64,000 nt of DNA from a virus. Shown in pieces: positions 28,621 through 62,302 of the stretch. The notes beneath the pieces were generated by a model. It ran no database searches. It was not told where the DNA came from and saw nothing but the letters and a program-made list of their open reading frames with translations. How positions within the stretch are numbered: the stretch's first letter is position 1; each line of letters starts with the position of its first letter. The stretch is taken from IMG/VR virus record IMGVR_UViG_3300045988_130413; one strand, written 5' to 3'. A program made the translations under genes and the position numbers.

Positions 28621-29868
28621 TTACATTCTTTCTGCAATTTTAGCAATTTTAGAACGATGAATCATTTTTAATTCAATTTCGCCATATATATCTTCGCCTC
28701 GATAGACCTTTGATACTCGTCTCATACCATTATTATTTCCGGCAAATGCAATGTCATCAACTTGCGTTTTTTCATCTCCATCTATAATACATACGCTATC
28801 TTCACCAATTCTTTGTAAAGCAAGTTTCATAAGTGTAATATCAAGATTTTGAGCTTCTGAAATATATATCCCAGCATTCATTCCAGTAGTGTCATAACCT
28901 CTAATATCAGAGAATGGAAGTAAAACAATTTGTTCTTCATCCATTAATCTTTCTAATTCAATTCGACTTCCTATTTTACTTGCAAGGACATTTCCAATTT
29001 GTGAATCTAAAAGTTTTTCATCTTTAGTACCTGGTAAATATCCTAATTTAGCAGAATTTTTTGTAGCAACTGTATTACAGAAAATAATAATTTTATCAAT
29101 CTTACCACGCTCTAATTGACTCATTAAGTATCCAAGAGATAGGTATGTTTTACCTGAGCCCGCAGGTCCTTTTACCAGAGTTATTTTGTTATTTGTAAAA
29201 CTATCTGCGACAAGTGTCTGATAAATATCTCCTTTAAGCGGTTTAACTTCACCGAACCATTTAGAATTAAAGCTTCTAAATTGAGTATGGCGATATTCAG
29301 AGCCTGTCCATACAGCAGAATCAACTGGTTTTCCATCTTTGTCTTTTACAATGATATATTCATTTACTTTTAAATTATAAATATTTTCAGTAGGATTAGA
29401 ATAAAAATTAGACATCATTTCATCATCCATTATAATCTCTTTATATCCACTGTAATCATCTTTTGGAGGATATATAGACATAATACATTGCACTGGTAAA
29501 AATGCGGTAGCAGTAACTTTTAAAGTCAAATCATTCGTTACAAAGAAAAAATCTTCTCTCTCGCTTATTTTTAAATTATTAAAATAAGAATATGCAGTCG
29601 CTAAAATTTTAATATCATTATTTACTTCAAATCCTTTTTCAGTAAAAGGATAAATAAAAAATGTTTTATATAATACAACTTCATATTTTGCGGGATTCGC
29701 ATTTAAAAAAGATAGGATTTTTCTTGCAATATATTTAACTTCAGAATCTTTAGAAGTTGATGTTTTAATCTTCTCAAGTTCCGCTAATGTAATAGAAGAT
29801 ATGATGAACTTCTCTTCTGGCATAGTTTCAAAGTTATCTAATAATGCACATGTGTCATAAAATTTCAT
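28621..29868 (-). CDS. phoH: PhoH-like ATPase with N-terminal PIN domain
   Basis: GPAGSGKTYLS, IYISEAQNLD...CIIDGD PhoH motifs. Confidence 0.7.
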   Translation of the reverse strand: MKFYDTCALLDNFETMPEEKFIISSITLAELEKIKTSTSKDSEVKYIARKILSFLNANPAKYEVVLYKTFFIYPFTEKGFEVNNDIKILATAYSYFNNLKISEREDFFFVTNDLTLKVTATAFLPVQCIMSIYPPKDDYSGYKEIIMDDEMMSNFYSNPTENIYNLKVNEYIIVKDKDGKPVDSAVWTGSEYRHTQFRSFNSKWFGEVKPLKGDIYQTLVADSFTNNKITLVKGPAGSGKTYLSLGYLMSQLERGKIDKIIIFCNTVATKNSAKLGYLPGTKDEKLLDSQIGNVLASKIGSRIELERLMDEEQIVLLPFSDIRGYDTTGMNAGIYISEAQNLDITLMKLALQRIGEDSVCIIDGDEKTQVDDIAFAGNNNGMRRVSKVYRGEDIYGEIELKMIHRSKIAKIAERM

Positions 29869-32804: not shown

Positions 32805-33074
32805 TCAACAATGATATTCATATTTTACTAACCAGTATTCTTTGCCATCTTCTTTATAGAGAACAGCATGGTCATCATATGGCGTTGTTACCAAACTTTT
32901 AAGTTTTTGAACAGCTTCAGTTTTATTTCTATAAACTGCATTTTTATGAAAAGTTAAATTTCCATGATACCCACTTGATTCTTGCGGGTCATAAGCAAAA
33001 CTGTTTAAATCTCGTAAAATTTGGGATTCTTTTGTAGAGCTGTCATAACTCTTATACCCAATTAAATGGCTCAT
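32805..33074 (-). CDS. hypothetical protein
   Basis: 89-aa ORF. Confidence 0.35.
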   Translation of the reverse strand: MSHLIGYKSYDSSTKESQILRDLNSFAYDPQESSGYHGNLTFHKNAVYRNKTEAVQKLKSLVTTPYDDHAVLYKEDGKEYWLVKYEYHC

Positions 33075-33622
33075 AGCATATCTTTACACTCCTCATATTT
33101 ATTTTTTATATCTTCAATAACTGTATCAAGTGAAACTGGATAACAGTTATGAGAATCAACTCCTACATGATACATGAAAAAATTATCTTCATAAAAATTA
33201 ACATTCTGATGTGTATGACCAAATAAATTTAAAGTCATATGATGTAATCCTGAATCATCAACATTACCAGTTAATGTTGGATAATGACTCATATAAAAAT
33301 TATATTTTCTATATTTTAAAACTGTCGAATATCCAAGGCATTCAAGACCATTTTCTTTATAAAGATTAACTCTTGTATTTGTATCATGATTTCCAATGAT
33401 AAAATACTTTTTACCATTTAGCCGTTTTAAACATTCGAGTCCGTGTTCATTATCTTTCAGCATCAAATCGCCTAAGATATACACTTCATCTTCTGGCTGC
33501 ACCAACTCATTCCATCTTTTAATAATTTCTTCATCATGGTCAACAATATTCGGAAAACCTCTCGGTTCGTAGATAAAAAACTTATCATGACCAAAATGAA
33601 GGTCTGAAGTCACATAAATCAT
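33071..33622 (-). CDS. calcineurin-like binuclear metallophosphoesterase (Pnkp phosphatase-like)
   Basis: DLHFGH, GDL, GNHD motifs; 4-nt overlap with upstream kinase gene. Confidence 0.6.
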   Translation of the reverse strand: MIYVTSDLHFGHDKFFIYEPRGFPNIVDHDEEIIKRWNELVQPEDEVYILGDLMLKDNEHGLECLKRLNGKKYFIIGNHDTNTRVNLYKENGLECLGYSTVLKYRKYNFYMSHYPTLTGNVDDSGLHHMTLNLFGHTHQNVNFYEDNFFMYHVGVDSHNCYPVSLDTVIEDIKNKYEECKDML

Positions 33623-34203
33623 TCTACATACTCCTTATCGGCATCTCCTACAATCAAAATATGTTTGTAGGTATATTTTTCATTGTAAGTTGGCTTATCA
33701 AAAGTATAAAACATTCTTCTGATTGTTCCTCTTGGAACATAAGCACGTCCCATTCCTTTTCGATTTTCATTCTGAGCAAGAATCTGAGCAAGTGGTAAAT
33801 TAAATACAACTGGAATAATATCTACTCCATCTAAATCAAGTCTATCAAGGACTCGATTTCTTGCTTTTTCACTCAGATGAGTTGCATCTGCGAAAACTGC
33901 AATATCATCAGTTGCTTCATTTAAAGCATTTTTAATTCTATTACAGAACTCATCAAAGACATCATCTTCATACTTAAAAATATTTTTATCATCTTCGTTT
34001 AAGAACTCAGCTCTTACTTCATCTCTTGACACATGTACACACTTGTAAGTCGTTGCCTGTGCCATTTCCTTCTTGACGTAAGTCGTCTTGCCTGATCCTG
34101 CAGGTCCGCACATAAGAAAGAGAATCTTGTGCTTCATCTTTATACACCCCATTTTCAAAATTTTCTTTAAACTCAAGAACATCCTCATATGATTTACATT
34201 CAA
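33619..34203 (-). CDS. P-loop polynucleotide kinase-like protein
   Basis: MCGPAGSGKTTYV Walker A; probable real start MKHKILF (~34137). Confidence 0.55.
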   Translation of the reverse strand: MNVNHMRMFLSLKKILKMGCIKMKHKILFLMCGPAGSGKTTYVKKEMAQATTYKCVHVSRDEVRAEFLNEDDKNIFKYEDDVFDEFCNRIKNALNEATDDIAVFADATHLSEKARNRVLDRLDLDGVDIIPVVFNLPLAQILAQNENRKGMGRAYVPRGTIRRMFYTFDKPTYNEKYTYKHILIVGDADKEYVE

Positions 34204-41525: not shown

Positions 41526-41555
41526 GAAGTTCCATTCCTTAAGAATGGAACTTCA
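41526..41555 (-). terminator. perfect 12-bp hairpin overlapping RNA ligase stop codon
   Basis: GAAGTTCCATTC-CTTAAG-GAATGGAACTTC. Confidence 0.5.
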
Positions 41556-42729
41556 GTAGAAATTCATTGGAAACCGCTTTAAAGGACTGAACACCATCCT
41601 GAGAACGGAATACAAGACCTTCACGCATCTTTCCATCTACTACAGAATCACCGGTCGCAATAGCAAGAAGTTCATCAACTGTATCTGGAAGGATAAAGTT
41701 TTCATCCACAATCGGCACCCACGGAATACCATACTCCATCATTAATTTGCTTGCCCGCTTAGAATCCCAACGACCTTCCGCAGAAGTGATGAAGTTAAAT
41801 CCCATAAAGTTATGCTCTTTCAGAGAGTATTCTCTCTTCTGGATACCCTGACCATAAGTTTCACCTTGAAGTGTTACCCATTCAAGGTCTGGACGATTTC
41901 TGAGAATCTCCTGGAGAGTTGCTTCAACATTGTATTTTTCAGCCATTTCAACGTAAACGTTGGTATCATAAAAACAAGACTTATCTGGCTTATCAAATAC
42001 TACGTTACGAGAGCAGATATAAAACTCAAATTTTTCTTTCTTCAAGAAACGAGTTTTAGTTCTTTTCATTGTAAAGGTAGTAGAAGTACCATCAATTTTT
42101 TCAGTTGCAACCCATGGATTTTTATTCTCAAGAATCCAAGGCATGTTCTGTACACGCTCTTCATCTGTTTTAGAAACCCATGCCGGCCATCCGGTCTTCT
42201 TATCAGAAGTTTTACCAAAGAACAAGAATAAGATTTTCTTACCCCAAGTTCTACGCATTAACCATCTAAAAGGCTGATGAGAAAACAATTTTCCATGTCT
42301 CTGAGCCATCTTTTTGTACTTATCTACAGAAGATGCTTTACGAGCATTATCTTCTTCAACTGCATAAGTTACTTTTAATTTCTGAGTTAAAAAGTCACCA
42401 AGTTTATAAGCATCTTTCTCCCAACCGAAGTCCTCAAAGCCCATCAACAGACCCTGAGAAATTACAGTACCTTTAAAATATTTCTGAGTCTTAATTTTAA
42501 AATGCTTCGGCTCAAGAAACATAAATGGCTCTTCTGCTGGAACTTTAGAATCAATCTCAAAGTAAACAGCTAAATCACCTGGCTTAAACTGGTCTTTACG
42601 AACCATAATATGCCAACCATTTACGATAGCTACTTCTACTCTGTCAGCTCCTTCAATAGGACGAATCTCGTCAACTTTGACAACATAAGCAAGCTCTCTT
42701 TCTTTCTTTTCATTCAGCATACCTATCAA
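41539..42729 (-). CDS. ATP-dependent RNA ligase (Rnl-family nucleotidyltransferase with N-terminal OB-like domain)
   Basis: Motif I VATEKIDGTS (KxDG), motif IV/V EGLVFR; consensus promoter upstream. Confidence 0.65.
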   Translation of the reverse strand: MIGMLNEKKERELAYVVKVDEIRPIEGADRVEVAIVNGWHIMVRKDQFKPGDLAVYFEIDSKVPAEEPFMFLEPKHFKIKTQKYFKGTVISQGLLMGFEDFGWEKDAYKLGDFLTQKLKVTYAVEEDNARKASSVDKYKKMAQRHGKLFSHQPFRWLMRRTWGKKILFLFFGKTSDKKTGWPAWVSKTDEERVQNMPWILENKNPWVATEKIDGTSTTFTMKRTKTRFLKKEKFEFYICSRNVVFDKPDKSCFYDTNVYVEMAEKYNVEATLQEILRNRPDLEWVTLQGETYGQGIQKREYSLKEHNFMGFNFITSAEGRWDSKRASKLMMEYGIPWVPIVDENFILPDTVDELLAIATGDSVVDGKMREGLVFRSQDGVQSFKAVSNEFLLKFHS

Positions 42730-44092: not shown

Positions 44093-44911
44093 TTATTTCA
44101 CCTCAAATTTCCAATAATAGAAGTTATACTGTTTCTTTGTATTGTAGGATTTTTTAATCCTTTTGGCTACATTGTTTACATTTACAGTTGGATTGTTTCT
44201 CATACTCTTATCATATGATTTAACATATTCAACTGCTTCTTTAAGATTCTCAAATTTCTTAGTTCTTTCTTCTTCAAAATTTTTAGTAGGGCAACAGAAA
44301 ACATCAAAACGAGTATCTTCATATTCGATTTGGTCAGTTGTAATTTCCTTATACTCCATAAAGACATTTGCATCTACTTCAGAAGCTTTCTCATTTTTAC
44401 AGCCTTCATAAACCTCTTTTAACATCTTCGCATCATCAAGAGAATTATGGGTCTGAACAATCTCTTCTCCTCTAAAATATTCGCAAACTTTAGCAAGATT
44501 AATCAGCTTAATTAAGCCAAAATGAACTTTGACGGCAGGAGCAAAATCCTTCATATCTGTATTCATATAGCCAAGAATTGCTTTTGCCTTAAAGCTATTT
44601 GTTTTGCGGAAGGTCGCTTTGATAAAATCTGTATCACAATTCCCATAACAATAAAACTCAGGAATATCATCGCCGCAATCTTCAAAGCAAAAATCAAAAA
44701 ACTTATTGAATACTTCTTCTGGAGAAGGAGCTGCCTCAACCATTTCTGTAGTAATACCTGTTAAATCAGTGATAAACTTAGAAACATTCTTCTTTGTATT
44801 CTCTGGAGTATGTACAAGAGAATAAAATTCTTTTCCATCTTCTCGAACACATCCAATAGAAATAATGTAATTGGAAAACTGCATTGCTTCAAAGTCAATA
44901 AAATATTTCAT
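44093..44911 (-). CDS. DEDDh 3'-5' exonuclease (DnaQ/RNase T-like)
   Basis: Exo I FIDFEA, Exo III HNSLDDAKML. Confidence 0.6.
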   Translation of the reverse strand: MKYFIDFEAMQFSNYIISIGCVREDGKEFYSLVHTPENTKKNVSKFITDLTGITTEMVEAAPSPEEVFNKFFDFCFEDCGDDIPEFYCYGNCDTDFIKATFRKTNSFKAKAILGYMNTDMKDFAPAVKVHFGLIKLINLAKVCEYFRGEEIVQTHNSLDDAKMLKEVYEGCKNEKASEVDANVFMEYKEITTDQIEYEDTRFDVFCCPTKNFEEERTKKFENLKEAVEYVKSYDKSMRNNPTVNVNNVAKRIKKSYNTKKQYNFYYWKFEVK

Positions 44912-44929
44912 AATGTATCAATCCTCTCT

Positions 44930-45112
44930 TTAGTCAAGTCTTACTTTTTTAGTATAAAGTTTCTTTTCAACGATGCTTCCGCATTCTGGACATCTAAAAT
45001 AAGAAAAAATAGAATTTCGACATTCATCTTGTGACGCAATAAATACACAATGACATTTTGAACATTTTAACCGATAACCATATTTTTCGCCAGATTTAAA
45101 AATTTTAATCAT
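44930..45112 (-). CDS. zinc-ribbon protein
   Basis: CSKCHC...CPECG. Confidence 0.35.
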   Translation of the reverse strand: MIKIFKSGEKYGYRLKCSKCHCVFIASQDECRNSIFSYFRCPECGSIVEKKLYTKKVRLD

Positions 45113-45145
45113 TTCTTTTTATCCTTTCCTTAACTTTCTATATAT

Positions 45146-45174
45146 ATTATATTATAATTTTAATAAAAAATCAA
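45146..45174 (-). promoter_or_regulatory. consensus phage promoter
   Basis: TTGATT-17-TATAAT. Confidence 0.5.
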
Positions 45175-45186
45175 TAAAGGAAAAAC

Positions 45187-45975
45187 TTATTCAGTTTTTC
45201 CTTTATCAAAATTAGGAGATTTTCTAAAATAAGCAGGAAGTAAATAATTTGGGTCGTTCCATCTTTTCCATATCTCGTCTAAGTCTTCGATTACTTTAAA
45301 ATATTGTTCAACGTGCGGGCGCTCTATTCTGTCTGCATGAAAGTGACCAAAAAGCCAAACATTCCAATTAATCTTATCTTTAAAAGAATCAAACCAAACT
45401 TCCATAGAATCATCTACAGTGGACTGGTCAATCATAGATAAAAACAAATCAGTTGGTTCCCAACTTAATGGACAAGTATGAGTAAAGACAAAATCAAAAT
45501 TTTGTCCTGCATACATCGCTTCAATAGTCTGCATTTCTGCTTCTGTTAACTGCTCATTTGGATACCAAGTATAATGATTTTCAAGTCTATACCACTTATC
45601 CACAGAATAAGCTCCACCTATTACAAGCGTATTATGACCAAGAAAATCATAATTAGAGCCATCCATGAGATAATGGATATGAGGATAACCGGGTTCAATG
45701 AAAACATAATTCGCAACATCATCATCCCAAACCTCTTCAATACCTTTAACATCTTCTGGACGAGCTTCATGATTCCCCCTTACTAAATAAAATGTGCATC
45801 CATATTGTTCAAGTTGCATCTTAATATCATGTCGCCTTGCCGCACTCTTGTAAAAATTAACCCCTGCATCTCCTAAGATAATAATACCAGTCTCTTTTGG
45901 ATTTTGTATTTCAAGCCATTCAAAACGATCCATACAGCCATGAGTATCTCCTGTTACAAAAAACTGTTTAATCAT
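45187..45975 (-). CDS. calcineurin-like metallophosphoesterase
   Basis: GDTHG, GDAG, GNHE, GHFH motifs. Confidence 0.65.
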   Translation of the reverse strand: MIKQFFVTGDTHGCMDRFEWLEIQNPKETGIIILGDAGVNFYKSAARRHDIKMQLEQYGCTFYLVRGNHEARPEDVKGIEEVWDDDVANYVFIEPGYPHIHYLMDGSNYDFLGHNTLVIGGAYSVDKWYRLENHYTWYPNEQLTEAEMQTIEAMYAGQNFDFVFTHTCPLSWEPTDLFLSMIDQSTVDDSMEVWFDSFKDKINWNVWLFGHFHADRIERPHVEQYFKVIEDLDEIWKRWNDPNYLLPAYFRKSPNFDKGKTE

Positions 45976-46793
45976 TCCCTTTCCTCCAACTCAAAAGCAA
46001 TACTTTTCTTCATAATTTCTGCTTGAACTTCTTGAAGAAGATTTTCAGCTTCTTCATCAGTATAGTTAAATTCAGAATCTTTTGTATATGGGGCACAAAT
46101 TTTATCAATATGAGCCATATGTTCATCTGCAACTTTAATAGCTTTTTCTTTTGGATAAAGACCAGTTTTAATGTCTTTTAAATATTGCGGGTTAGCTGGA
46201 CATAAACATTCTTTATATGGTGCTCCAGCGATATATTTATCGAGGTATTCATCAATTCTTACAAGCTGATAAAGCTGTTTTGGGTCATAGTTAAACTTTT
46301 CAAAAGCTTCTTTATGTGCTTCAGTCTCTTTAATAAGAGCATATCTTTTTCCAAGAGCAATACCAGACATAGCCTTTACTGCGAAATAAGGATTATAATG
46401 TGCAATAACTTCATTTTCCGCAATTAATTTATTCCATTCTTTTTCATACATTGGATTGATGATTTTATAATTAGTGAAAAGAATCTCAATAAAATTTAGA
46501 TTCTGTTTGCGGAAAGTATCAAACATAAGTCTAATATCTTTAAAGTCAATATGCTCTCCATTAGCCCTAAAATGAGTTGTAGACATAGGCTTACGATTAT
46601 AAATAAAATCATTTAATGTTGGAGTGGTAATAAGTTTTGTATCAATATCAGAATCTTCAGTCTCAAGACCGTAATTCTGACTACCTTGCAGAAAAATACC
46701 TACAATATTATTTTTAGCAAAGTATTGTTTAGATTCAAGATAATGCTCTTGAATACCACTCGCAGTTTTAATTATTGTATTAAGGTCTGCCAT
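45972..46793 (-). CDS. Pol-beta superfamily nucleotidyltransferase
   Basis: GIFLQGSQNYGLETEDSDIDT (GS...DxD). Confidence 0.55.
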   Translation of the reverse strand: MADLNTIIKTASGIQEHYLESKQYFAKNNIVGIFLQGSQNYGLETEDSDIDTKLITTPTLNDFIYNRKPMSTTHFRANGEHIDFKDIRLMFDTFRKQNLNFIEILFTNYKIINPMYEKEWNKLIAENEVIAHYNPYFAVKAMSGIALGKRYALIKETEAHKEAFEKFNYDPKQLYQLVRIDEYLDKYIAGAPYKECLCPANPQYLKDIKTGLYPKEKAIKVADEHMAHIDKICAPYTKDSEFNYTDEEAENLLQEVQAEIMKKSIAFELEERE

Positions 46794-46825
46794 ACTTTCT
46801 CACCTTCCTTTAACTTTCTATATAT

Positions 46826-46854
46826 ATTATAATAAATTTTTAATAAAAAATCAA
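46826..46854 (-). promoter_or_regulatory. consensus phage promoter
   Basis: TTGATT-17-TATAAT. Confidence 0.5.
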
Positions 46855-46883
46855 AAAGGGAGAAAATATTTAAACTTTCTCCC

Positions 46884-47240
46884 TTAATCATCGGTTGCCC
46901 ATTGTCCCTTTTTAATCAATCTTACAAGTTCATAATCATGCTGGGTTGGTTCAACATAAAATTTATATTTCGCAGAAGCATACTCAGGAATGTCAAAATG
47001 ATGATTTGCGTTCCATACATAATCTAAACAATCAATAACAGCTTGTTGTTTATCTTTATCAGTTCCATTTGTGTTTGCAGAAATATAAGCTAAGATTTCT
47101 TCTTCTTCGCTTCCCCAATCATAAGATGGAAAAATTTGCATCTTTTCCGCAGGTTTATGTCGAAAAGACATACCTAAAGATGTAAATAATACACATAAAA
47201 GAATAATTAAAAACATTTTTTCTTTCCAGTTAAAATTCAT
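46884..47240 (-). CDS. secreted/lipoprotein-like hypothetical protein
   Basis: Signal-peptide-like MFLIILLCVLFTSLG. Confidence 0.35.
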   Translation of the reverse strand: MNFNWKEKMFLIILLCVLFTSLGMSFRHKPAEKMQIFPSYDWGSEEEEILAYISANTNGTDKDKQQAVIDCLDYVWNANHHFDIPEYASAKYKFYVEPTQHDYELVRLIKKGQWATDD

Positions 47241-47254
47241 ACATGAATCCTTTC

Positions 47255-47683
47255 TTATAAGAAATAATGTAATACAGGAATATATTTATCCCGCAATTTT
47301 TCAGTAAGCGTATCAGTTAAAGTCATATGGTCTTTCATATCTGCCTGTTTAACGATAAAAGCATAATCATCTTTTGCGTCAATAATTTTATGAATATAAT
47401 CTTCATATTTTTCTTGAGGGTCTTTTGTTAAAAGAACTAATGAATTATAACTCTCTATTCCCAGAATAGACATTAAATCTTCTTTTGGACATTCAGTGTC
47501 TTCTAACAAATCGTGCGCCAAAGCAATCATATAAGCTTTTGTTATATCCATTTTTAAAAGGTCAGCTTTTGCGGTCGCATATTCAGCAACCCGCAAAGCA
47601 TGAGCTAATTTTTTCTTAGGATAATATTGAGCTGCTAAAGTGAATAATTTATTCATTTTTGTAATATCATAATTATAACCCAT
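47255..47683 (-). CDS. HD-domain phosphohydrolase (YfbR-like 5'-deoxynucleotidase family, DatZ-like)
   Basis: HALRVA...ALAHDLLEDT (H..HD..D). Confidence 0.6.
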   Translation of the reverse strand: MGYNYDITKMNKLFTLAAQYYPKKKLAHALRVAEYATAKADLLKMDITKAYMIALAHDLLEDTECPKEDLMSILGIESYNSLVLLTKDPQEKYEDYIHKIIDAKDDYAFIVKQADMKDHMTLTDTLTEKLRDKYIPVLHYFL

Positions 47684-47991
47684 TAATGTCCCTCCTCACA
47701 AATACCTAAAGAAATTTCTCCTGTATATCCGCAATAATACATGGAAAGTTTCTTAGAGCCTTTTTTAGAAAAATAATACCAGGTATCCTGTTCCCAGCCA
47801 TTAGTATCCCAGTCATCATCTCTATCATAACCAAGTTTATCAAAAACATCCATAAACTGACATGGACCAAGGTTTAAAAGGCTAAGTTCAATATTTGTAG
47901 CATTACCAACTTCAAGCTCATGAATTACACCTCTTATAAAAGGCATTACTTTATCAATATCTTCCTCAGAAATGCTATATCCTCTTATCAT
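47683..47991 (-). CDS. hypothetical protein
   Basis: 102-aa ORF. Confidence 0.35.
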   Translation of the reverse strand: MIRGYSISEEDIDKVMPFIRGVIHELEVGNATNIELSLLNLGPCQFMDVFDKLGYDRDDDWDTNGWEQDTWYYFSKKGSKKLSMYYCGYTGEISLGICEEGH

Positions 47992-48856
47992 TTATTCTTC
48001 TCCTATATAAATTAAATCATCAACGTATTTGCGGTCTTCGCCTTTTAAAATAGGCATATTTTTATCAATAGCCCAGATAGGTCTTTCTTCAATAATTGTA
48101 GTTGTAACTCTATCTTCTCCAAAAGGCTGAGGTTCTCTTTTTATATTTTCAGTTACTTTTGTTGCAACTTTAATACATGCAGTTCCTCGTTTACATGGTA
48201 TTGTAAAGTCATTCCAGTTAATGCCATATTTGGTCATTAACATATCTTGAATCATATTACAAGTTTTATCTTGAAGTTCATCATGTGAAAAATGAGCTTG
48301 TCCAACCATTTGAATACTATTTCTTGTTGCATCAAGTTGCCGCCAATAAATGAGGTTAGTTACCTCTTCTTTTGGAATGTTAAAACATCTGGCATCAAAC
48401 ATTGCCCCTTTTTCTACTGCACTTATATAATTGTCAAGTAAGCCTTCTCTTCTCTTTACAAGGGGGTCATGAGTTAAATTATATTCAACTACATTTTCAG
48501 AAAAATATTTGTTAAAAGCCATTGTTGCCATAGAAGCTGATACAGAGGTTAATTTTTGAACCTCATAATCAAACCAAGCATCTGAAGTGAATTTTTGATA
48601 ATCTACTAAAATCAGAGTAATTTCATCTGATTGTGTATATCCAAAAACGCAACCTTGAATATTTTCACATAGATATTTCATTGTTTGTTGCATTGTATCC
48701 ATTAGCACAAAGTCAAATGGTTTTTGAAAACCTCTTGTAAAAGTATGAAACGCCTTGCCGTCAAAGACGTATCGCTACTGGTGTTCTTCTCATAAGAACA
48801 GTTTTACTAACTTTTTCATAATTTTTCATTCTGTTAGCTAAATCACTTCTATCCAT
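47992..48856 (-). CDS. Thg1-like 3'-5' nucleotidyltransferase (tRNA-His guanylyltransferase family); needs +1 frameshift at CUU UGA C (~48763-48769)
   Basis: N-terminal frame MDRSDLANRMKNYEKVSKTVLMRRTPVAIRL then stop; +1 frame continues DGKAFHTF...FVLMDTMQQTMKYL...VFGYTQSDEITLIL...YWRQLDATRN, matching Thg1 VVVRLDGRNFHRF...IAYGQSDEYSFVF...SWRQ. Confidence 0.65.
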
Positions 48857-57817: not shown

Positions 57818-58906
57818 ATGATTTATTTAGATAATAATGCGACAACTAAGCCTTTTCCAGAAGTAATTAAAATATTTGAAGAATCTTCTTTTGCTAATCC
57901 ACATTCAACCCATTCTGCAGGTTTATTAGCAGATAAAGAGCTACAGTCCGCAAAAGAAAGTATTGCAAAAGATATTGATTGCGAACCAGACGAAATATAT
58001 TTTGTAGGAAGTCCAACAGAAGCCTGTAATTGGGCAATTCAAATTTTACGAGATAAAGAATGTAAAATAAATTATCATAAATATGAACATAGCGCAGTAT
58101 TAAAACCTATTTTAGCTTTTCCAGAAGTAGAGAATCCTAAACGAAATGGATATGTACAAATGCTTGTAAATAATATTTATGGAGAAATTTATAATATCCC
58201 CATAAGAGAACATGAAGATGATATTATTTTTTGTGATGGTACTGCGGCGATTGGGCATATTCCTTTTAGTTTTAAAGAATCTGGTATTGATATGCTTGCT
58301 TTTGGAGCACATAAATTCAATGGATTAAGAGGAATCGCTTGTTTAATAATTAAAAAAGATTTACTTCCAGTCCGTTCATTATTATGGGGTGGAGATATAA
58401 CTGGCGGCACTCCTTGCCAAGGTCTTGCATCTGCAATGGCATATGCTTTACATAAAAATATTGAGCATATGAGCGAAAATACAAAAAAGACTAAAGAAAT
58501 GCAAGATTATATTATTAATGAACTAACTACAATTCCATTTTCACGAATTAATGGACCGATAGGAAATAATAGAATTTCTAATAATGTAAATATTAGTTTT
58601 TCATATATATCTGGTTCAGATTTACAAAAGTATCTTAGTGATTATAATATTTGTGTTTCTACTGGAAGCGCTTGTGATTCAAGCAGTTTTGTTGAGTCCA
58701 GAGGTGGTATTTGTGTGCGGCCATTGAAAAAAGATAATCGAAGAGAACCTGAATTGGTTACAATATTTAAAGCCGGTGGAATGGATGAAGATGATGCAAA
58801 AAGTTCAATTAGAATTACCTTAGATGCAAATTATAATACTATGGAAGAAATTGAAGAGTTTATTAACACCCTTAAAAATATTATTAAATTAAATAGACCT
58901 ATATAA
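57818..58906 (+). CDS. NifS/IscS-like cysteine desulfurase (class V aminotransferase)
   Basis: LDNNATT, FANPHSTHSAG, PLP-lysine region AFGAHKFNGLRGIACLII; only plus-strand gene. Confidence 0.7.
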   Translation: MIYLDNNATTKPFPEVIKIFEESSFANPHSTHSAGLLADKELQSAKESIAKDIDCEPDEIYFVGSPTEACNWAIQILRDKECKINYHKYEHSAVLKPILAFPEVENPKRNGYVQMLVNNIYGEIYNIPIREHEDDIIFCDGTAAIGHIPFSFKESGIDMLAFGAHKFNGLRGIACLIIKKDLLPVRSLLWGGDITGGTPCQGLASAMAYALHKNIEHMSENTKKTKEMQDYIINELTTIPFSRINGPIGNNRISNNVNISFSYISGSDLQKYLSDYNICVSTGSACDSSSFVESRGGICVRPLKKDNRREPELVTIFKAGGMDEDDAKSSIRITLDANYNTMEEIEEFINTLKNIIKLNRPI

Positions 58907-58907
58907 C

Positions 58908-58945
58908 AAAAAATCCAGTCTTAATAATAAGACTGGATTTTTTGT
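58908..58945. terminator. bidirectional terminator
   Basis: A6-TCCAGTCTTA-ATAA-TAAGACTGGA-T6. Confidence 0.6.
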
Positions 58946-59283
58946 TTTTCTTTTTGTTCACGTCTATCTCTTTCAATTTTACGCATTTCTTTTAGTCGCT
59001 TACAATTATTGCATCCATGATGATCACAATTACAATCCCAACAGCCATCAGTATCTAACCAAAACCAATTTGGTGGTTGCGGTTTAGGTTTGCGAAAAAT
59101 CTTTTTCTTGCTCATCCATACTCTCCCATCTGCGACGGTCCATTCGACACCAGTTACGCTTGCCCGCACTATAATGTCCTTTTGGATTTGTTTTAAACTG
59201 ACCAGAGCAACATTCACATGAACAAAAATTCTTATTTTTACTATAGGCATGAAGATTTCTATACCATCCATCTTCCCATCCAT
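58921..59283 (-). CDS. hypothetical Cys-rich protein (frame-overlapping with 59084..59365)
   Basis: CWDCNCDHHGCNNC; 200-nt overlap with neighbour in another frame. Confidence 0.25.
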   Translation of the reverse strand: MDGKMDGIEIFMPIVKIRIFVHVNVALVSLKQIQKDIIVRASVTGVEWTVADGRVWMSKKKIFRKPKPQPPNWFWLDTDGCWDCNCDHHGCNNCKRLKEMRKIERDRREQKEKQKIQSYY

Positions 59284-59365
59284 ATACTACTTCAGCAATA
59301 TATCTTTTGTGTTTTGCTTTTCTGATAGATTGTTTTCTTCTAATTCCTCTGGCATTTCTTCGCAT
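59084..59365 (-). CDS. hypothetical basic Cys-rich protein
   Basis: AGGAGG RBS 6 nt before ATG; CSCECCSGQ. Confidence 0.4.
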   Translation of the reverse strand: MRRNARGIRRKQSIRKAKHKRYIAEVVYGWEDGWYRNLHAYSKNKNFCSCECCSGQFKTNPKGHYSAGKRNWCRMDRRRWESMDEQEKDFSQT

Positions 59366-59414
59366 ATGAAACCTCCTATATTAAAAATATAAAGGGGGCA
59401 TATGCCCCTTTATA

Positions 59415-59765
59415 TTAAAGTGTTTTTTCAATAGCCGCAACATTGGCTTTTGCTACATTGCAAGCCTCATTTGCGTCTAAAAGATATTCCTGCATTTTTA
59501 CAAGATGTGTCTGAGCTTCGATAACTTCCTGGAGCGCCTCAGAAACTTTACTTGCGGCTCTCTTAGCTCTTTTTTCTGCAATCTTTGCATTACAACGGGC
59601 AATAGCAAGCTCAGTACCTTTTTCTACATCAAAGGTGTCTCTTGGGTCTGCCTTTGCATAGCCTTTTACATTTTTACCTGCATAAGTGCTTACTGCAATT
59701 ACTTTCCGCTGATTCTGGTCTACAAATACCCGATATTTTTCTTTACCAAAAGTAGTTTTCATCAT
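59415..59765 (-). CDS. hypothetical protein
   Basis: 116-aa ORF behind consensus promoter. Confidence 0.4.
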   Translation of the reverse strand: MMKTTFGKEKYRVFVDQNQRKVIAVSTYAGKNVKGYAKADPRDTFDVEKGTELAIARCNAKIAEKRAKRAASKVSEALQEVIEAQTHLVKMQEYLLDANEACNVAKANVAAIEKTL

Positions 59766-59805
59766 TTTTTAAATCTCCTTTATCTCTTATCTTTAATATA
59801 AATAT

Positions 59806-59834
59806 ATTATATAATATTTTTTATATAAAATCAA
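59806..59834 (-). promoter_or_regulatory. consensus phage promoter
   Basis: TTGATT-17-TATAAT. Confidence 0.5.
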
Positions 59835-59859
59835 TATGGCAATCTTTTTGTCTAAAAAA

Positions 59860-60295
59860 TTCTAAAACGCTTTTTTGTTTTGGGTTTGCGGTTCTCTCGT
59901 TCGGGTCCGGCGCGAGCAGCTTATGCTTTTCATATGAGCTGGATTTATATAAAAAATAGCCAATAAAAACCTTTTCATGCGACCCCTTACTTTGCAAGCG
60001 TTCATTATTCATGCTCCTTGCACTAAACCCACCTATAAAAATCCATCAGGGGCCTGGTTCACTACTTTAGTTTTTATTGACTATCTTCCCATTAACAAAG
60101 TCTTTATTCAATATGGTCAACTTAAATAGGATTGTTTAAAAGACTGTATTAAGGATACCTTATAATTCGTGCCATATTCACTACACATAAATAAAATACC
60201 TATTATTTTTAAGAGCCTGCCTACCTCTTATGCAGCAGTTAGTCCCTGCTTGCCGAAGCCAGTTATTAAAGGGAACTGTTAGGTTGCACCCTGAT
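59860..60295 (-). ncRNA. ORF-free, GC-richer structured region downstream of interrupted tRNA 2 (candidate ncRNA)
   Basis: ~435 nt without convincing ORF (the 59821..60012 ORF is likely spurious), many local hairpins. Confidence 0.25.
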
Positions 60296-60339
60296 GGGGA
60301 GTGATGGAGTCGAACCACCCGAGACCGAAGCCACCAGTT
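60296..60339 (-). tRNA. 3' half of second interrupted tRNA gene (T-arm + acceptor 3' strand)
   Basis: AACTGGTGGCTTCGGTCTCGGGTGGTTCGACTCCATCACTCCCC; ACTCCCC pairs with GGGGAGT at 60812-60818. Confidence 0.4.
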
Positions 60340-60762
60340 TTATGCCTTATCCAAGATTTGAACTTGGTATTTATAAGTTTGAAATCCTTGATTATTTATT
60401 GTAGGAGCATTTCGTAAAGCTATTCTATTACGATTACCAGCTTTAAGAATATCTTTTACTGGAATACACCACATGTCTAAATTTTTATTTACACAAAATA
60501 AAAAATCAAGCTCAGAATGATTTATAATATTATCATAGACGGCTCCTTTTGTCCCTCCTGTATTTCTCAAACTAATTTCTCCACTTTCAGTTTGAGTAGC
60601 TTTACATTGTACAGTTTTTAAAACACCGTCTTTTTCAATTATCAAATCATACCACTGAGTGTCATTTAATGGAAGAGAAACTGTATATCCTTGACAAGTA
60701 AAATAATTTATTGCCATACTTAATCCAATTCTTCCAATTTGTTTTCTATTAATTTCATTCAC
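60340..60762 (-). CDS. Hjc-like PD-(D/E)xK nuclease encoded inside interrupted tRNA gene (paralogue 2)
   Basis: GTG start with AGGAG RBS; GYTVSLPLNDTQWYDLIIE...LKTVQCK aligns with 54605..55027 product. Confidence 0.5.
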   Translation of the reverse strand: MNEINRKQIGRIGLSMAINYFTCQGYTVSLPLNDTQWYDLIIEKDGVLKTVQCKATQTESGEISLRNTGGTKGAVYDNIINHSELDFLFCVNKNLDMWCIPVKDILKAGNRNRIALRNAPTINNQGFQTYKYQVQILDKA

Positions 60763-60780
60763 TATAAAATCTCCTATTAA

Positions 60781-60818
60781 GACCAGACTGGCCTGCTACC
60801 CCTACAGTATAACTCCCC
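60781..60818 (-). tRNA. 5' half of second interrupted tRNA gene
   Basis: GGGGAGT-TA-TACT-GTAGGGGT-AGCA-G-GCCAG-TCTGGTC. Confidence 0.4.
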
Positions 60819-60823
60819 GAGAT

Positions 60824-61174
60824 TTAAATGAAATCAACTTTATCAAACATTGGAGCATAACTCTTAACATGATTATGAGTTAAAATGCCCATCAAAGTTT
60901 CTTTATCATTTTCTTCTATAATATAAATATGAACTGTATCACTTGTAATAGCTTGTCTACCTTTTGGAGCAGTTAATAATTTAGCACATTTCTCAACTCT
61001 TTGCATATCAGTTGTGTTTAATTCCATGCGTCCTCGACTACTAACAACCGCAAATATTGGTTTGCCATTTTTAATTTTCGGCTTTGTATCAATAATCTTA
61101 CCGCACCAATTAATATTATATTCTTCATGTACATCTGTTACAATAAGATGAGTCTTTACTAAAACTTCTGCCAT
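60824..61174 (-). CDS. hypothetical protein
   Basis: 116-aa ORF. Confidence 0.35.
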   Translation of the reverse strand: MAEVLVKTHLIVTDVHEEYNINWCGKIIDTKPKIKNGKPIFAVVSSRGRMELNTTDMQRVEKCAKLLTAPKGRQAITSDTVHIYIIEENDKETLMGILTHNHVKSYAPMFDKVDFI

Positions 61175-61180
61175 TATTCT

Positions 61181-61372
61181 TTACTCCTTAAAAGAATTGA
61201 AGAAATTCATTATATCTTCATTCACCTGTCTTGTTTCAATATTCTCACTCCTTGGAGCAGATTTAGAAACATGAGATGGATGTTGCTCTTTCCAACAGGG
61301 AAGAAAATGTTTTGAAAGACTTTCTTCTTTTTCAAATTTTCTTTTACAAGTAGGACAAATATACATATTCAA
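61181..61372 (-). CDS. small zinc-finger protein
   Basis: CPTCKRKF...HFLPC. Confidence 0.35.
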   Translation of the reverse strand: MNMYICPTCKRKFEKEESLSKHFLPCWKEQHPSHVSKSAPRSENIETRQVNEDIMNFFNSFKE

Positions 61373-61380
61373 TCTCCTTT

Positions 61381-61800
61381 TATTTATAAGCTACTCTTGT
61401 AGAAATAGTGTGATTAAAAATAGCCAGATACTAAAATATTCTTTCTTAGCAGGAAAGCGCCCTATATGAGCAATATAATTGCTGTATGTATCTGTTTATT
61501 CACTTCATTAAAAGATGACGCTTTTAATGAAATTAGCTTTCGATACCATCTCTGTCAAGCCCTTAGCTTATAAGGACAGTGAAGTGTAAGCCCCTCACCA
61601 GAATCTCATGCTTCCCATTGATTTACAAGGCTATAGCACAAAGCAACCTTGGGAGACTCTCATAGGTCATCTATGGCTGAGCATCTTCCTTAACTCAGAC
61701 TTTAAAATATTAAACCGTGCTACTTATTCCTAAACTATTTCGTAGCTATCTCCATCAGCATCATTTCAGATACTATACACATAAGATTTTGTGATTTAAT
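61381..61800 (-). ncRNA. ORF-free structured region upstream of tRNA-Gln (candidate ncRNA/leader)
   Basis: ~420 nt, no ORF on either strand, moderate GC. Confidence 0.25.
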
Positions 61801-61806
61801 ATTAAA

Positions 61807-61878
61807 CTGGGGTAGCTGGATTCGAACCAGCGAATACGGCAGTCAAAGTGCCGGGCCTTACCGCTTGGCGATACCCCA
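61807..61878 (-). tRNA. tRNA-Gln (anticodon UUG)
   Basis: TGGGGTATCGCCAAGCGGTAAGGC...CGGCA-CTTTGAC-TGCCG...GCTGGTTCGAATCCAGC-TACCCCA; near-identical framework to E. coli tRNA-Gln. Confidence 0.85.
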
Positions 61879-61883
61879 TCATT

Positions 61884-61950
61884 TCAAGACACATTTTGAA
61901 TTATTGCCTAACCACTTGGCTATTTATGCACCCTGAGCATAAAACTGGAT
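61884..61950 (-). ncRNA. rearranged/possibly permuted tRNA-like element
   Basis: 17-nt exact copy of the tRNA-Gln T-arm (CTGGATTCGAACCAGCG), then TTTATGC, 7-nt spacer, complementary GCATAAA, then U8-A9 and D-arm GCC-AAGTGGTTA-GGC. Confidence 0.3.
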
Positions 61951-62302
61951 TCGAACCAGCGTTAATAATTTGCTATAAGCAAAATTTGCTGTGTGTGTCT
62001 TAAAAGATATTTCTTAAATTTTTAAAAGAGAGGTTTTTAATTAACAAGACTCGTAAAGTTCTAATAGTAATCCTATCAATAATCCCTATTTACTTCAACT
62101 CAAATTATTGGTCATCGGCTGGAGCCGGACTACCGGCGTTCTTGTTATCCTTTTAATTACATTAAAAGAAATTTGCTGATCCGAGTCTATTATATTTTTA
62201 ATAATCGGGTGGATTTGCACTCGCCTTACCTCTGTAACCTACAGAACCCTTGGAAGATAAACTTCCTTAGCACCTTGCAATTATTATTTACTTTATATAT
62301 TT

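Follow-up and report, generated by a model that had tools for sequence, protein, structure and literature searches.

The window analyzed here, a 64,000-nucleotide (nt) stretch of viral DNA (IMG/VR record IMGVR_UViG_3300045988_130413), contains a transfer RNA (tRNA) gene for tyrosine that is interrupted in its anticodon loop by a 441-nt insert carrying a 140-residue open reading frame (ORF). The insert is a recent mobile element, and its two ends are predicted to fold together into the acceptor-stem/T-arm half of a second tRNA, complete with a discriminator base. The best explanation for these observations, which we hold with slightly better than even confidence, is that the insert is a mobile, endonuclease-carrying intron whose RNA mimics a tRNA from within the anticodon loop of tRNA-Tyr, and that it would be cut out by RNase P and an RNase Z-type enzyme before ligation of the exons. 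The structural finding, the insertion polymorphism and the rule relating the intron 3' tail to the CCA end of the host tRNA, all presented below, are secure.

A tRNA-Tyr gene interrupted in its anticodon loop

ARAGORN in normal mode and Rfam identify six ordinary tRNAs on the minus strand of the window, and neither calls a tRNA at 60296-60818. In intron mode, ARAGORN reports two split tRNAs that its standard mode and Rfam both miss, one at c[60295,60818] with a 441-nt insert and another at c[54556,55089] with a 461-nt insert. The anticodon choice made in intron mode is arbitrary and uninterrupted alleles were therefore sought, using a gapped pattern derived from the two anticodon-stem strands. 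Because brute-force joining of exons with ARAGORN is too permissive for junction definition, the junctions were set from these uninterrupted alleles and from structure. Sister contigs of approximately 195 kb (L044, L045 and L047) harbor an intact tRNA gene at the same position and within the same flanking sequences. The intact gene in L044 is identical to the two exons of the window joined together, and this identity fixes the exon and intron coordinates as follows:

60818-60784, minus strand: tRNA-Tyr(GUA) 5' exon, 35 nt, tRNA nt 1-34 (ARAGORN intron mode; same as the 5' part of the L044 allele)
60783-60343, minus strand: intron (mobile insert), 441 nt, between G34 and U35 (presence/absence relative to L044, L045 and L047)
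60342-60295, minus strand: tRNA-Tyr 3' exon, 48 nt, tRNA nt 35-73 (ARAGORN; L044 allele)

The 5' exon comprises the acceptor 5' strand, the D arm and the anticodon stem 5' strand, ending in C32 U33 G34, and the 3' exon comprises U35 A36 A37 A38, the anticodon stem 3' strand, a long variable arm, the T arm, the acceptor 3' strand and A73, with no encoded CCA. The sequences meeting at the exon junction are GGCCAGUCUG and UAAAACUGG (CUG/UAAA), and the intron runs from GUCUUAAUAGG, starting at G1, to GAUAAGGCA at its 3' end. In the ARAGORN drawing, the joined exons give a tRNA of 83 nt that includes a hairpin in the variable arm and ends in A. The interrupted gene is hence a bacterial type II tRNA-Tyr(GUA), with a long variable arm and A73. 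A related locus (L057), with exon and intron elements matching those of the window, is called as tRNA-Tyr(gta) after splicing in silico.

A first-pass annotation of this DNA, generated from the sequence alone, had proposed that a nuclease ORF breaks a tRNA gene in its anticodon loop, and both the intron-mode prediction and the uninterrupted alleles bear this out. The tRNA halves that it delineated stand, but the boundaries it assigned to them (60781 and 60339) each lie 3 nt away from the true ends at 60784 and 60342. The segment following the 3' exon (60294-60195, minus strand) resembles a long hairpin capped by UUCG, but it folds no better than shuffled sequences (z = +0.54) and was dropped on that basis.

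A predicted acceptor/T-arm minihelix at the insert ends

Comparison of homologous loci from viral contigs (43), metagenomes (80) and metagenome-assembled genome (MAG) bins (19) revealed approximately 45 loci, representing 31-33 distinct sequences, in which the ORF lies within a split tRNA-Tyr gene. The recurrence of the same arrangement at so many related loci goes far beyond chance, in line with the earlier contention that two occurrences in the window pointed to a system and not an accident. All of these loci, save for decayed variants, share a common architecture, in which intron nucleotides 1-7 pair with the seven nucleotides preceding the last, unpaired base, and a 5-bp stem with a 7-nt loop (U-U-C-A/G-A-n-U) is located directly 5' of the 3' strand of this helix. 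The corresponding elements in the window are:

60783-60777, minus strand: acceptor-like helix, 5' strand, GUCUUAA, intron nt 1-7, pairing with 60350-60344 (unconstrained minimum free energy (MFE) fold)
60367-60351, minus strand: T-arm mimic, CCAAG-UUCAAAU-CUUGG, overprinted on codons for ..QVQIL..
60350-60344, minus strand: acceptor-like helix, 3' strand, AUAAGGC (alignment A2, MFE fold)
60343, minus strand: last intron nucleotide, A, unpaired and discriminator-like (read from the sequence; N/NCCA rule)

This architecture shows strong covariation in a gap-free alignment of 31 distinct intron sequences from loci chosen with a pairing filter (alignment A2). Paired cells make up 92.2% of the structure, compared with 69.3% in column shuffles, none of which reached the observed value in 500 attempts, and with 22-47% when partners are slid. 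Eleven of the 12 pairs vary on both sides, with 91 compensatory cells. In the acceptor-like helix (helix 1) 88.9% of cells are paired and all seven pairs change on both sides, and the T-stem (helix 2) presents 96.8% of paired cells and double-sided changes in four of five pairs, capped by a nearly invariant T-loop mimic (U-U-C-A-A-n-U). The unconstrained MFE fold of the 524-nt precursor likewise contains the outer cloverleaf, the nested helix and the T-arm. The T-arm overlaps the conserved codons for K-Y-x-V-x-I at the C-terminal end of the ORF, where the intronic copies encode V-Q/R-I/F (GUU CAA/CGA AUC), a choice that spells the T-loop. The T-arm motif is found at the 3' end of the ORF in 39 of 45 intron-type loci, versus only 2 of the 78 other, mainly free-standing loci.

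The state of the exons was assessed by in silico splicing. Of 32 distinct loci, 26 yielded a recognizable tRNA-Tyr(GUA), and their stems are diverse yet internally compensated. More informative are the loci that lack the minihelix or have a damaged one, since their exons are damaged as well. Among these, L002, L003 and L062 present a T-loop mutated to UUAAAGU, which in L002 affects the equivalent of C56, an AUA anticodon and loss of the variable arm, and in L038 the anticodon stem is missing its 3' strand. The L030 group (L030, L032-L034 and L043) has no minihelix and carries a 5-nt insertion (ATTCG) in the 3' exon; 44 contigs related to this group keep an intact CUGUAAC allele.

Splice-site position and the intron tail

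Lineages differ in the position of the insert within the tRNA, with CUG preceding and UAAA following it in some (34/35 junction) and CUGU and AAA in others (35/36 junction). Measured against the intron helix, the junction does not vary: it lies exactly 5' of helix nucleotide 1, a G in no fewer than 90% of the sequences, and directly follows the tail. As read from these comparisons, the predicted splice sites track the intron helix and not the tRNA position.

The intron tail consists of N alone or of NCCA. The 17 N tails that could be scored are all found in tRNA genes without CCA and the 11 NCCA tails all in CCA-encoding genes, with no discordant cases (28/28), and two additional loci (L009 and L135) were found by eye to be concordant. 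RNase Z is known to cut directly after the discriminator of CCA-less precursors; when CCA is present, the cut made by several of these enzymes falls immediately 3' of A76 and leaves a 3'-OH (PMC7479834, PMC1540738). The two tails thus match the two documented cut positions of RNase Z.

Introns of this type are also found without the ORF. In L135 (1658-1722), a 65-nt ORF-less insert occupies the 35/36 position of an otherwise normal tRNA-Tyr gene and matches the Rfam tRNA model from its first base to the discriminator (40.5 bits; gathering score 29). The endonuclease gene is here free-standing, directly upstream, which suggests that the intron may act as target-site immunity. A second ORF-less insert, of 158 nt and with the same ends, is found in a tRNA-Gly(UCC) gene (L026, 3985-4142).

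Empty alleles and recent mobility

In addition to the window, a second intron-bearing contig (L001) harbors a D-stem variant of the split gene, with exons and flanks identical to those of the uninterrupted L045 allele. Together, the L044/window and L045/L001 pairs place the insert on two exon backgrounds, each with an empty counterpart, and this is consistent with homing by the ORF product, according to its predicted activity. The presence of empty alleles at the same locus in sister phages establishes that the insert is recent and mobile. Searching related phages for these tRNAs with and without the insert, a check proposed in the first-pass annotation, recovered both forms at the same locus (L044, L045 and L047). 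The same annotation had named intact versions elsewhere in related phages, combined with decay of the interrupted copies, as the outcome that would contradict it. Intact versions do exist, but they lie at the same locus and their exons match those of the window (L044) and of L001 (L045) exactly. Intact alleles at the same locus, with exons identical to those of the interrupted copies, indicate mobility and not decay.

The intron ORF belongs to the I-Ssp6803I family

The coding features of the insert are:

60762-60340, minus strand: 140-residue ORF, predicted PD-(D/E)XK homing endonuclease of the I-Ssp6803I family (ORF list, Pfam, PDB, PHROG 5018)
60775-60771, minus strand: Shine-Dalgarno sequence AGGAG of the intron ORF (read from the sequence)

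The ORF has a GTG start codon with AGGAG located 8 nt upstream, as anticipated by the earlier description of a 140-residue ORF with a GTG start and a good ribosome-binding site. Its UAA stop codon (60342-60340) is made up of exon nucleotides U35 A36 A37. An exonic stop codon is also present in all 34/35-type relatives, and in 35/36-type relatives the ORF stops inside the T-stem.

The ORF product matches Pfam PF11645 (PDDEXK_5) with 56.6 bits (E = 3.6e-15; gathering cut-off 26.1), and the product of the ORF in the other split tRNA of the window (copy 1, the tRNA-Tyr insert being copy 2) matches the same family with 79.2 bits, above the gathering score. The best PDB match of the copy-2 product is 2OST (E = 0.008), which we take to be the I-Ssp6803I structure, and the alignment extends through the YDL...VQxK motifs. 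Residues D39, E43, Q52 and K54 are invariant in 12 diverse homologs (alignment A1) and align with YDL...VQVK of 2OST; on the basis of the PD-(D/E)XK motif, they are the predicted catalytic residues. By homology, the ORF product is assigned to the I-Ssp6803I homing-endonuclease family. Pairwise alignment of the two ORF products (25% identity, E = 7e-06) and their shared PF11645 match corroborate the proposal that they are paralogous. Their initial designation as Hjc-like nucleases, conversely, captured a close fold but the wrong family, since the family is PF11645/I-Ssp6803I. Pfam scans of both ORFs returned PDDEXK_5 and no Hjc model, with a weak zinc-ribbon match in copy 1 as the only other match. 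Hjc is one of the nearest structural neighbors of I-Ssp6803I, which targets a 23-bp pseudo-palindrome (PMC3384342). I-Ssp6803I itself is described as a homing endonuclease that is specific for the anticodon region and whose gene lies in a tRNA-fMet group I intron (PMC3384342; PMC3984707).

Homologs in cultured phages, including T5-like, Bacillus and Vibrio phages, are distant, free-standing and unannotated, and are located inside tRNA clusters. The free-standing homologs of Escherichia phage SelmaRatti (L217) and Bacillus phage BCP12 (L218) end 2-14 nt upstream of tRNA-Ser, and that of Vibrio phage Morian (L219) ends 86 nt upstream of a tRNA-Asn gene. These three homologs could be tractable models for DNA-level activity. 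A Klebsiella phage homolog has no annotated tRNA in the stretch shown. Several loci (L007, L008, L018, L026-L028 and L035-L037) present an in-frame TAG at positions where homologs have Gln, such as the invariant Q of NDTQWYD, which points to TAG-to-Gln recoding in those genomes; the window reads normally.

A second, hairpin-type class of intron in tRNA-Gly

The other split tRNA gene of the window is:

54557-55089, minus strand: copy 1, tRNA-Gly(UCC) split at C36/A37; intron 55053-54593 (461 nt); ORF 55027-54605

Six uninterrupted tRNA-Gly(UCC) alleles (L048-L053) place the copy-1 insert between C36 and A37. The first-pass annotation had considered copy 2 to have the same arrangement as this region (54553-55089), but the two differ: copy 2 combines a 34/35 junction with a minihelix, whereas copy 1 combines a 36/37 junction with a long continuous helix and has no T-arm. 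The last 10 nt of the copy-1 intron pair with anticodon nucleotides 34-36 and intron nucleotides 1-7, followed by a small A/(C,A) internal loop with a conserved GCAUUG motif and by a second covarying helix. The anticodon stem is extended in this manner into a helix of approximately 25 bp, present in both the MFE and the centroid fold (z = -4.88). Relatives of the copy-1 endonuclease are likewise found in tRNA-Gly(UCC), tRNA-Thr(UGU/AGU) and tRNA-Ser(GCU) genes (L240-L261). Insertion in this class is always at 36/37, and the intron invariably ends in three bases that can pair with the anticodon. This arrangement implies cuts with a 3-bp stagger and 3' overhangs, whereas RNase III would give 2-nt overhangs. 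The 3' tail does not follow the CCA rule. Copy 1 is therefore a different, second class of endonuclease-carrying tRNA intron, of the hairpin type.

The two inserts segregate independently, as evidenced by contig 154609, where the Tyr insert is present and the Gly insert absent (L001, L050). A hairpin-type intron was also observed in the tRNA-Thr(UGU) gene of contig 130671 (L259), a sister of the window without either of the window introns, indicating that intron content differs gene by gene among near-identical genomes.

A proposed splicing pathway and its alternatives

In the pathway that we propose, the I-Ssp6803I-family product would act on co-infecting relatives whose tRNA-Tyr genes are uninterrupted, cutting these genes in the region of the anticodon stem-loop, and the insert would then be copied into the cut gene by homing. 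In the transcript, the 5-bp stem with the UUCAAAU loop would stack on the 7-bp helix, with the ORF taking the position that the D and anticodon arms have in a tRNA. For RNase P, the 5' tRNA half would be equivalent to a leader, removed by a cut 5' of G60783 at the 5' splice site. For an RNase Z-type enzyme, the 3' half would be equivalent to a trailer, removed by a cut after A60343, which is followed by U, at the 3' splice site; in CCA-encoding relatives, the latter cut would fall after the CCA instead. The tRNA halves would stay paired through the acceptor and anticodon stems, with 3'-OH and 5'-P ends, and would thus directly provide the substrate of an ATP-dependent RNA ligase, most likely that of the phage itself, which would seal them. 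Since the stop codon is exonic, the excised intron of the 34/35 types would be a non-stop messenger RNA (mRNA), and translation of the endonuclease would consequently have to use the precursor before splicing; while a ribosome was passing through the T-arm, processing would be blocked for a time. What we infer here is which two nucleases act, that ligation follows and which ligase carries it out. The candidate ligase and the accompanying repair genes are:

41539-42729, minus strand: candidate sealing enzyme, ATP-dependent RNA ligase of NgrRnl/DraRnl type (presumed association with the intron)
28621-29868, 33071-34203, 41539-42729, 44093-48708 and 49347-53364, minus strand: RNA/tRNA repair gene set, adjoining the tRNA cluster

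The ligase matches Pfam RNA_ligase, the PHA02142 OB domain, PHROG 968, PDB 5COT (E ~1.2e-27) and TIGR02306 (E = 4e-27). Together with this NgrRnl-like ligase, the repair set encodes a PIN-PhoH protein, a Pnkp-like P-loop kinase with metallophosphoesterase, an RNase T-like exonuclease, a second metallophosphoesterase, a Pol-beta nucleotidyltransferase, an HD-domain protein, a Thg1-like protein, a PARG/macro protein and a DUF2828/DUF7788 protein with a weak VWA-domain match. That the phage encodes a ligase, a kinase, phosphoesterases, a Thg1-like protein and an RNase T-like protein speaks for the pathway.

Several observations weigh against this pathway. The pairing filter used to choose the A2 loci introduces a bias that the slid-partner controls and the counts of failed loci limit but do not remove, and at one locus (L086) an intact minihelix is found in a degenerate tRNA (A33, variable arm lost). 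Sister phages that lack the intron have the ligase and repair genes as well, so that these are not intron-specific, and the NgrRnl/DraRnl family seals duplex nicks, in contrast to the T4 Rnl1 type known for anticodon loops. The CCA end inhibits many bacterial RNase Z enzymes (PMC7479834), which makes it uncertain which enzyme would cut after CCA in these hosts. Furthermore, the intact exons could reflect recent homing and not selection for splicing, and the companion Gly intron of the same genome does not fit the RNase P/RNase Z model.

The main rival to the splicing pathway is processing without ligation, whereby the minihelix would let RNase P and RNase Z release the endonuclease mRNA from the transcript of the tRNA cluster, and perhaps stabilize it, the exons would never be rejoined, leaving tRNA-Tyr dead, and the element would persist by homing drive alone. 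The apparently recent insertions, with exons identical to uninterrupted alleles, the decayed tRNAs of L002/L003/L062, L086, the L030 group and L038, and a ligase that is not specific to intron carriers all fit such a scenario, which we deem unlikely overall. Its difficulties lie with the ORF-less inserts of L135 and L026, whose host tRNA genes are otherwise perfect and which contain no mRNA that could be released, with the non-stop mRNA that 34/35-type excision would generate, a poor route to protein, and with the fact that exon decay is found mostly where the minihelix is absent or mutated. Cleavage by a dedicated protein endonuclease followed by ligation, be it an archaeal-type bulge-helix-bulge (BHB) enzyme or the PD-(D/E)XK protein of the intron acting on RNA, is considerably less probable. 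Some archaeal splicing endonucleases are tetramers, and the copy-1 class presents a symmetric splice geometry, with a 3-bp stagger. I-Ssp6803I also forms a tetramer (PMC3384342), and the PD-(D/E)XK superfamily is reported to include tRNA-intron splicing enzymes (PMC3424549). The BHB motif, however, requires two 3-nt bulges carrying the splice sites and separated by a 4-bp helix, and both inspection and folding reveal that the copy-2 splice sites instead share a single internal loop, which separates the anticodon stem from the intron helix. Moreover, the tRNA-Tyr is of bacterial type II, ORF-less introns would need the enzyme in trans, and both tRNA mimicry and the CCA rule would go unexplained.

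Self-splicing by a group I or other ribozyme overlapping the coding sequence might be expected because the sole characterized member of the family, I-Ssp6803I, comes from a group I intron that interrupts a tRNA anticodon loop. We nonetheless assign it a very low probability. No match to Rfam Intron_gpI or to any other intron or ribozyme model was obtained at E <= 1 over 12 kb, nor at E <= 10 over 551 nt, where group II and small ribozymes were equally without a match. The non-coding part of the 441-nt insert amounts to only 21 nt, which is too little to accommodate a ribozyme, and a group I core would by far exceed the 65 nt of the shorter ORF-less intron. The group I splice signature is also missing, with the 5' exon ending in G34 and not U, and the intron ending in A and not G. 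Just as improbable is a purely parasitic insertion of a free-standing endonuclease gene, which would turn the tRNA into a pseudogene and render the RNA structure functionless. Close homologs do occur free-standing beside tRNA genes in many phages, cultured ones included, but both helices covary, the helix ends coincide with the insert boundaries to the nucleotide, the N/NCCA rule holds in 28 of 28 cases and the T-arm codons are specific to intronic copies, leaving this explanation strongly disfavored. The broader claim that gut and rumen phages harbor a new enzymatic intron class, in which the intron is itself the nested tRNA mimic, RNase P and RNase Z would serve as splicing endonucleases and a phage repair ligase would join the exons, appears to us evenly balanced. 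Under this claim, homing endonucleases would travel in such introns, ORF-less forms would be maintained and the hairpin-type class of copy 1 would be found alongside them in the same genomes.

Relation to known systems and genomic context

The insert is akin to the Synechocystis tRNA-fMet group I intron encoding I-Ssp6803I in the PF11645 family of its endonuclease, in its location within an anticodon loop and in the pseudo-palindromic anticodon stem-loop DNA target. Unlike that intron, it has no ribozyme, no Rfam match and no U/omega-G signature, and its ends are predicted to form a tRNA minihelix. The BHB introns of archaeal and eukaryal tRNAs, some of which carry homing endonuclease genes, are likewise ribozyme-free and located in or near the anticodon loop, and their removal by a protein endonuclease and a ligase, with the halves held by the mature domain, is comparable to the route proposed here. 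The window intron differs from them in its lack of a BHB motif and in its phage setting, within a bacterial-type tRNA. Furthermore, BHB splicing generates 2',3'-cyclic phosphate and 5'-OH ends, whereas 3'-OH and 5'-P ends are predicted for the window intron from the chemistry of RNase P and RNase Z, so that an ATP-dependent ligase, and not one of the RtcB type, would be expected.

In transfer-messenger RNA (tmRNA), an ORF is enclosed by an acceptor/T-arm module built from the paired ends of the molecule, a topology shared by the window intron, and in minihelix substrates, plant mitochondrial t-elements and MALAT1 mascRNA the enzymes that process tRNA ends set the ends of non-tRNA RNA. In contrast to all of these, the window module is nested in the anticodon loop of another tRNA, would need exon ligation and is mobile at the DNA level. 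Phage ligases (T4 Pnkp/Rnl1) reseal breaks in anticodon loops, but ligation in T4 is a repair of host-made damage and not programmed splicing as proposed here. Homing endonucleases are known to target phage tRNA gene regions, as in the case of T4 SegB (PMC2330249), although SegB, unlike the window ORF, is a GIY-YIG enzyme located between genes.

No near DNA relative of the phage was found among 50,697 deposited phage records. Related contigs originate from metagenomes, with some records named human gut, and related MAG bins are labeled Clostridia, Oscillospiraceae, Muribaculaceae and Prevotella; a search of bacterial genomes produced matches in MAG bins only, and no isolate host. The only sizeable plus-strand ORF in the 53500-62000 region is a class-V aminotransferase/cysteine desulfurase-like gene (57818-58906, plus strand), which may be linked to tRNA thiolation. 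The full-text literature searched yielded no description of ribozyme-free, tRNA-shaped introns in phage tRNA genes, and this suggests that the insert is a mobile intron of a kind as yet without description.

Implications for tRNA splicing

If the proposed pathway is correct, it would constitute a third route of tRNA splicing, beside self-splicing and BHB/EndA splicing, and bacteria and their viruses would own protein-dependent tRNA introns with splice sites set by tRNA mimicry. It would explain the invasion of an essential-type RNA gene by a homing endonuclease that brings no ribozyme, and would mean that such genes are systematically overlooked when phage genomes are scanned for tRNAs. The RNA ligase and repair modules of phages would gain a routine, programmed job beyond countering host anticodon nucleases, and the combination of a minihelix and a ligase would provide a simple, portable design for programmable RNA excision. 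The pathway would also offer a concrete model of how enzyme-spliced tRNA introns may arise from nested tRNA-like elements.

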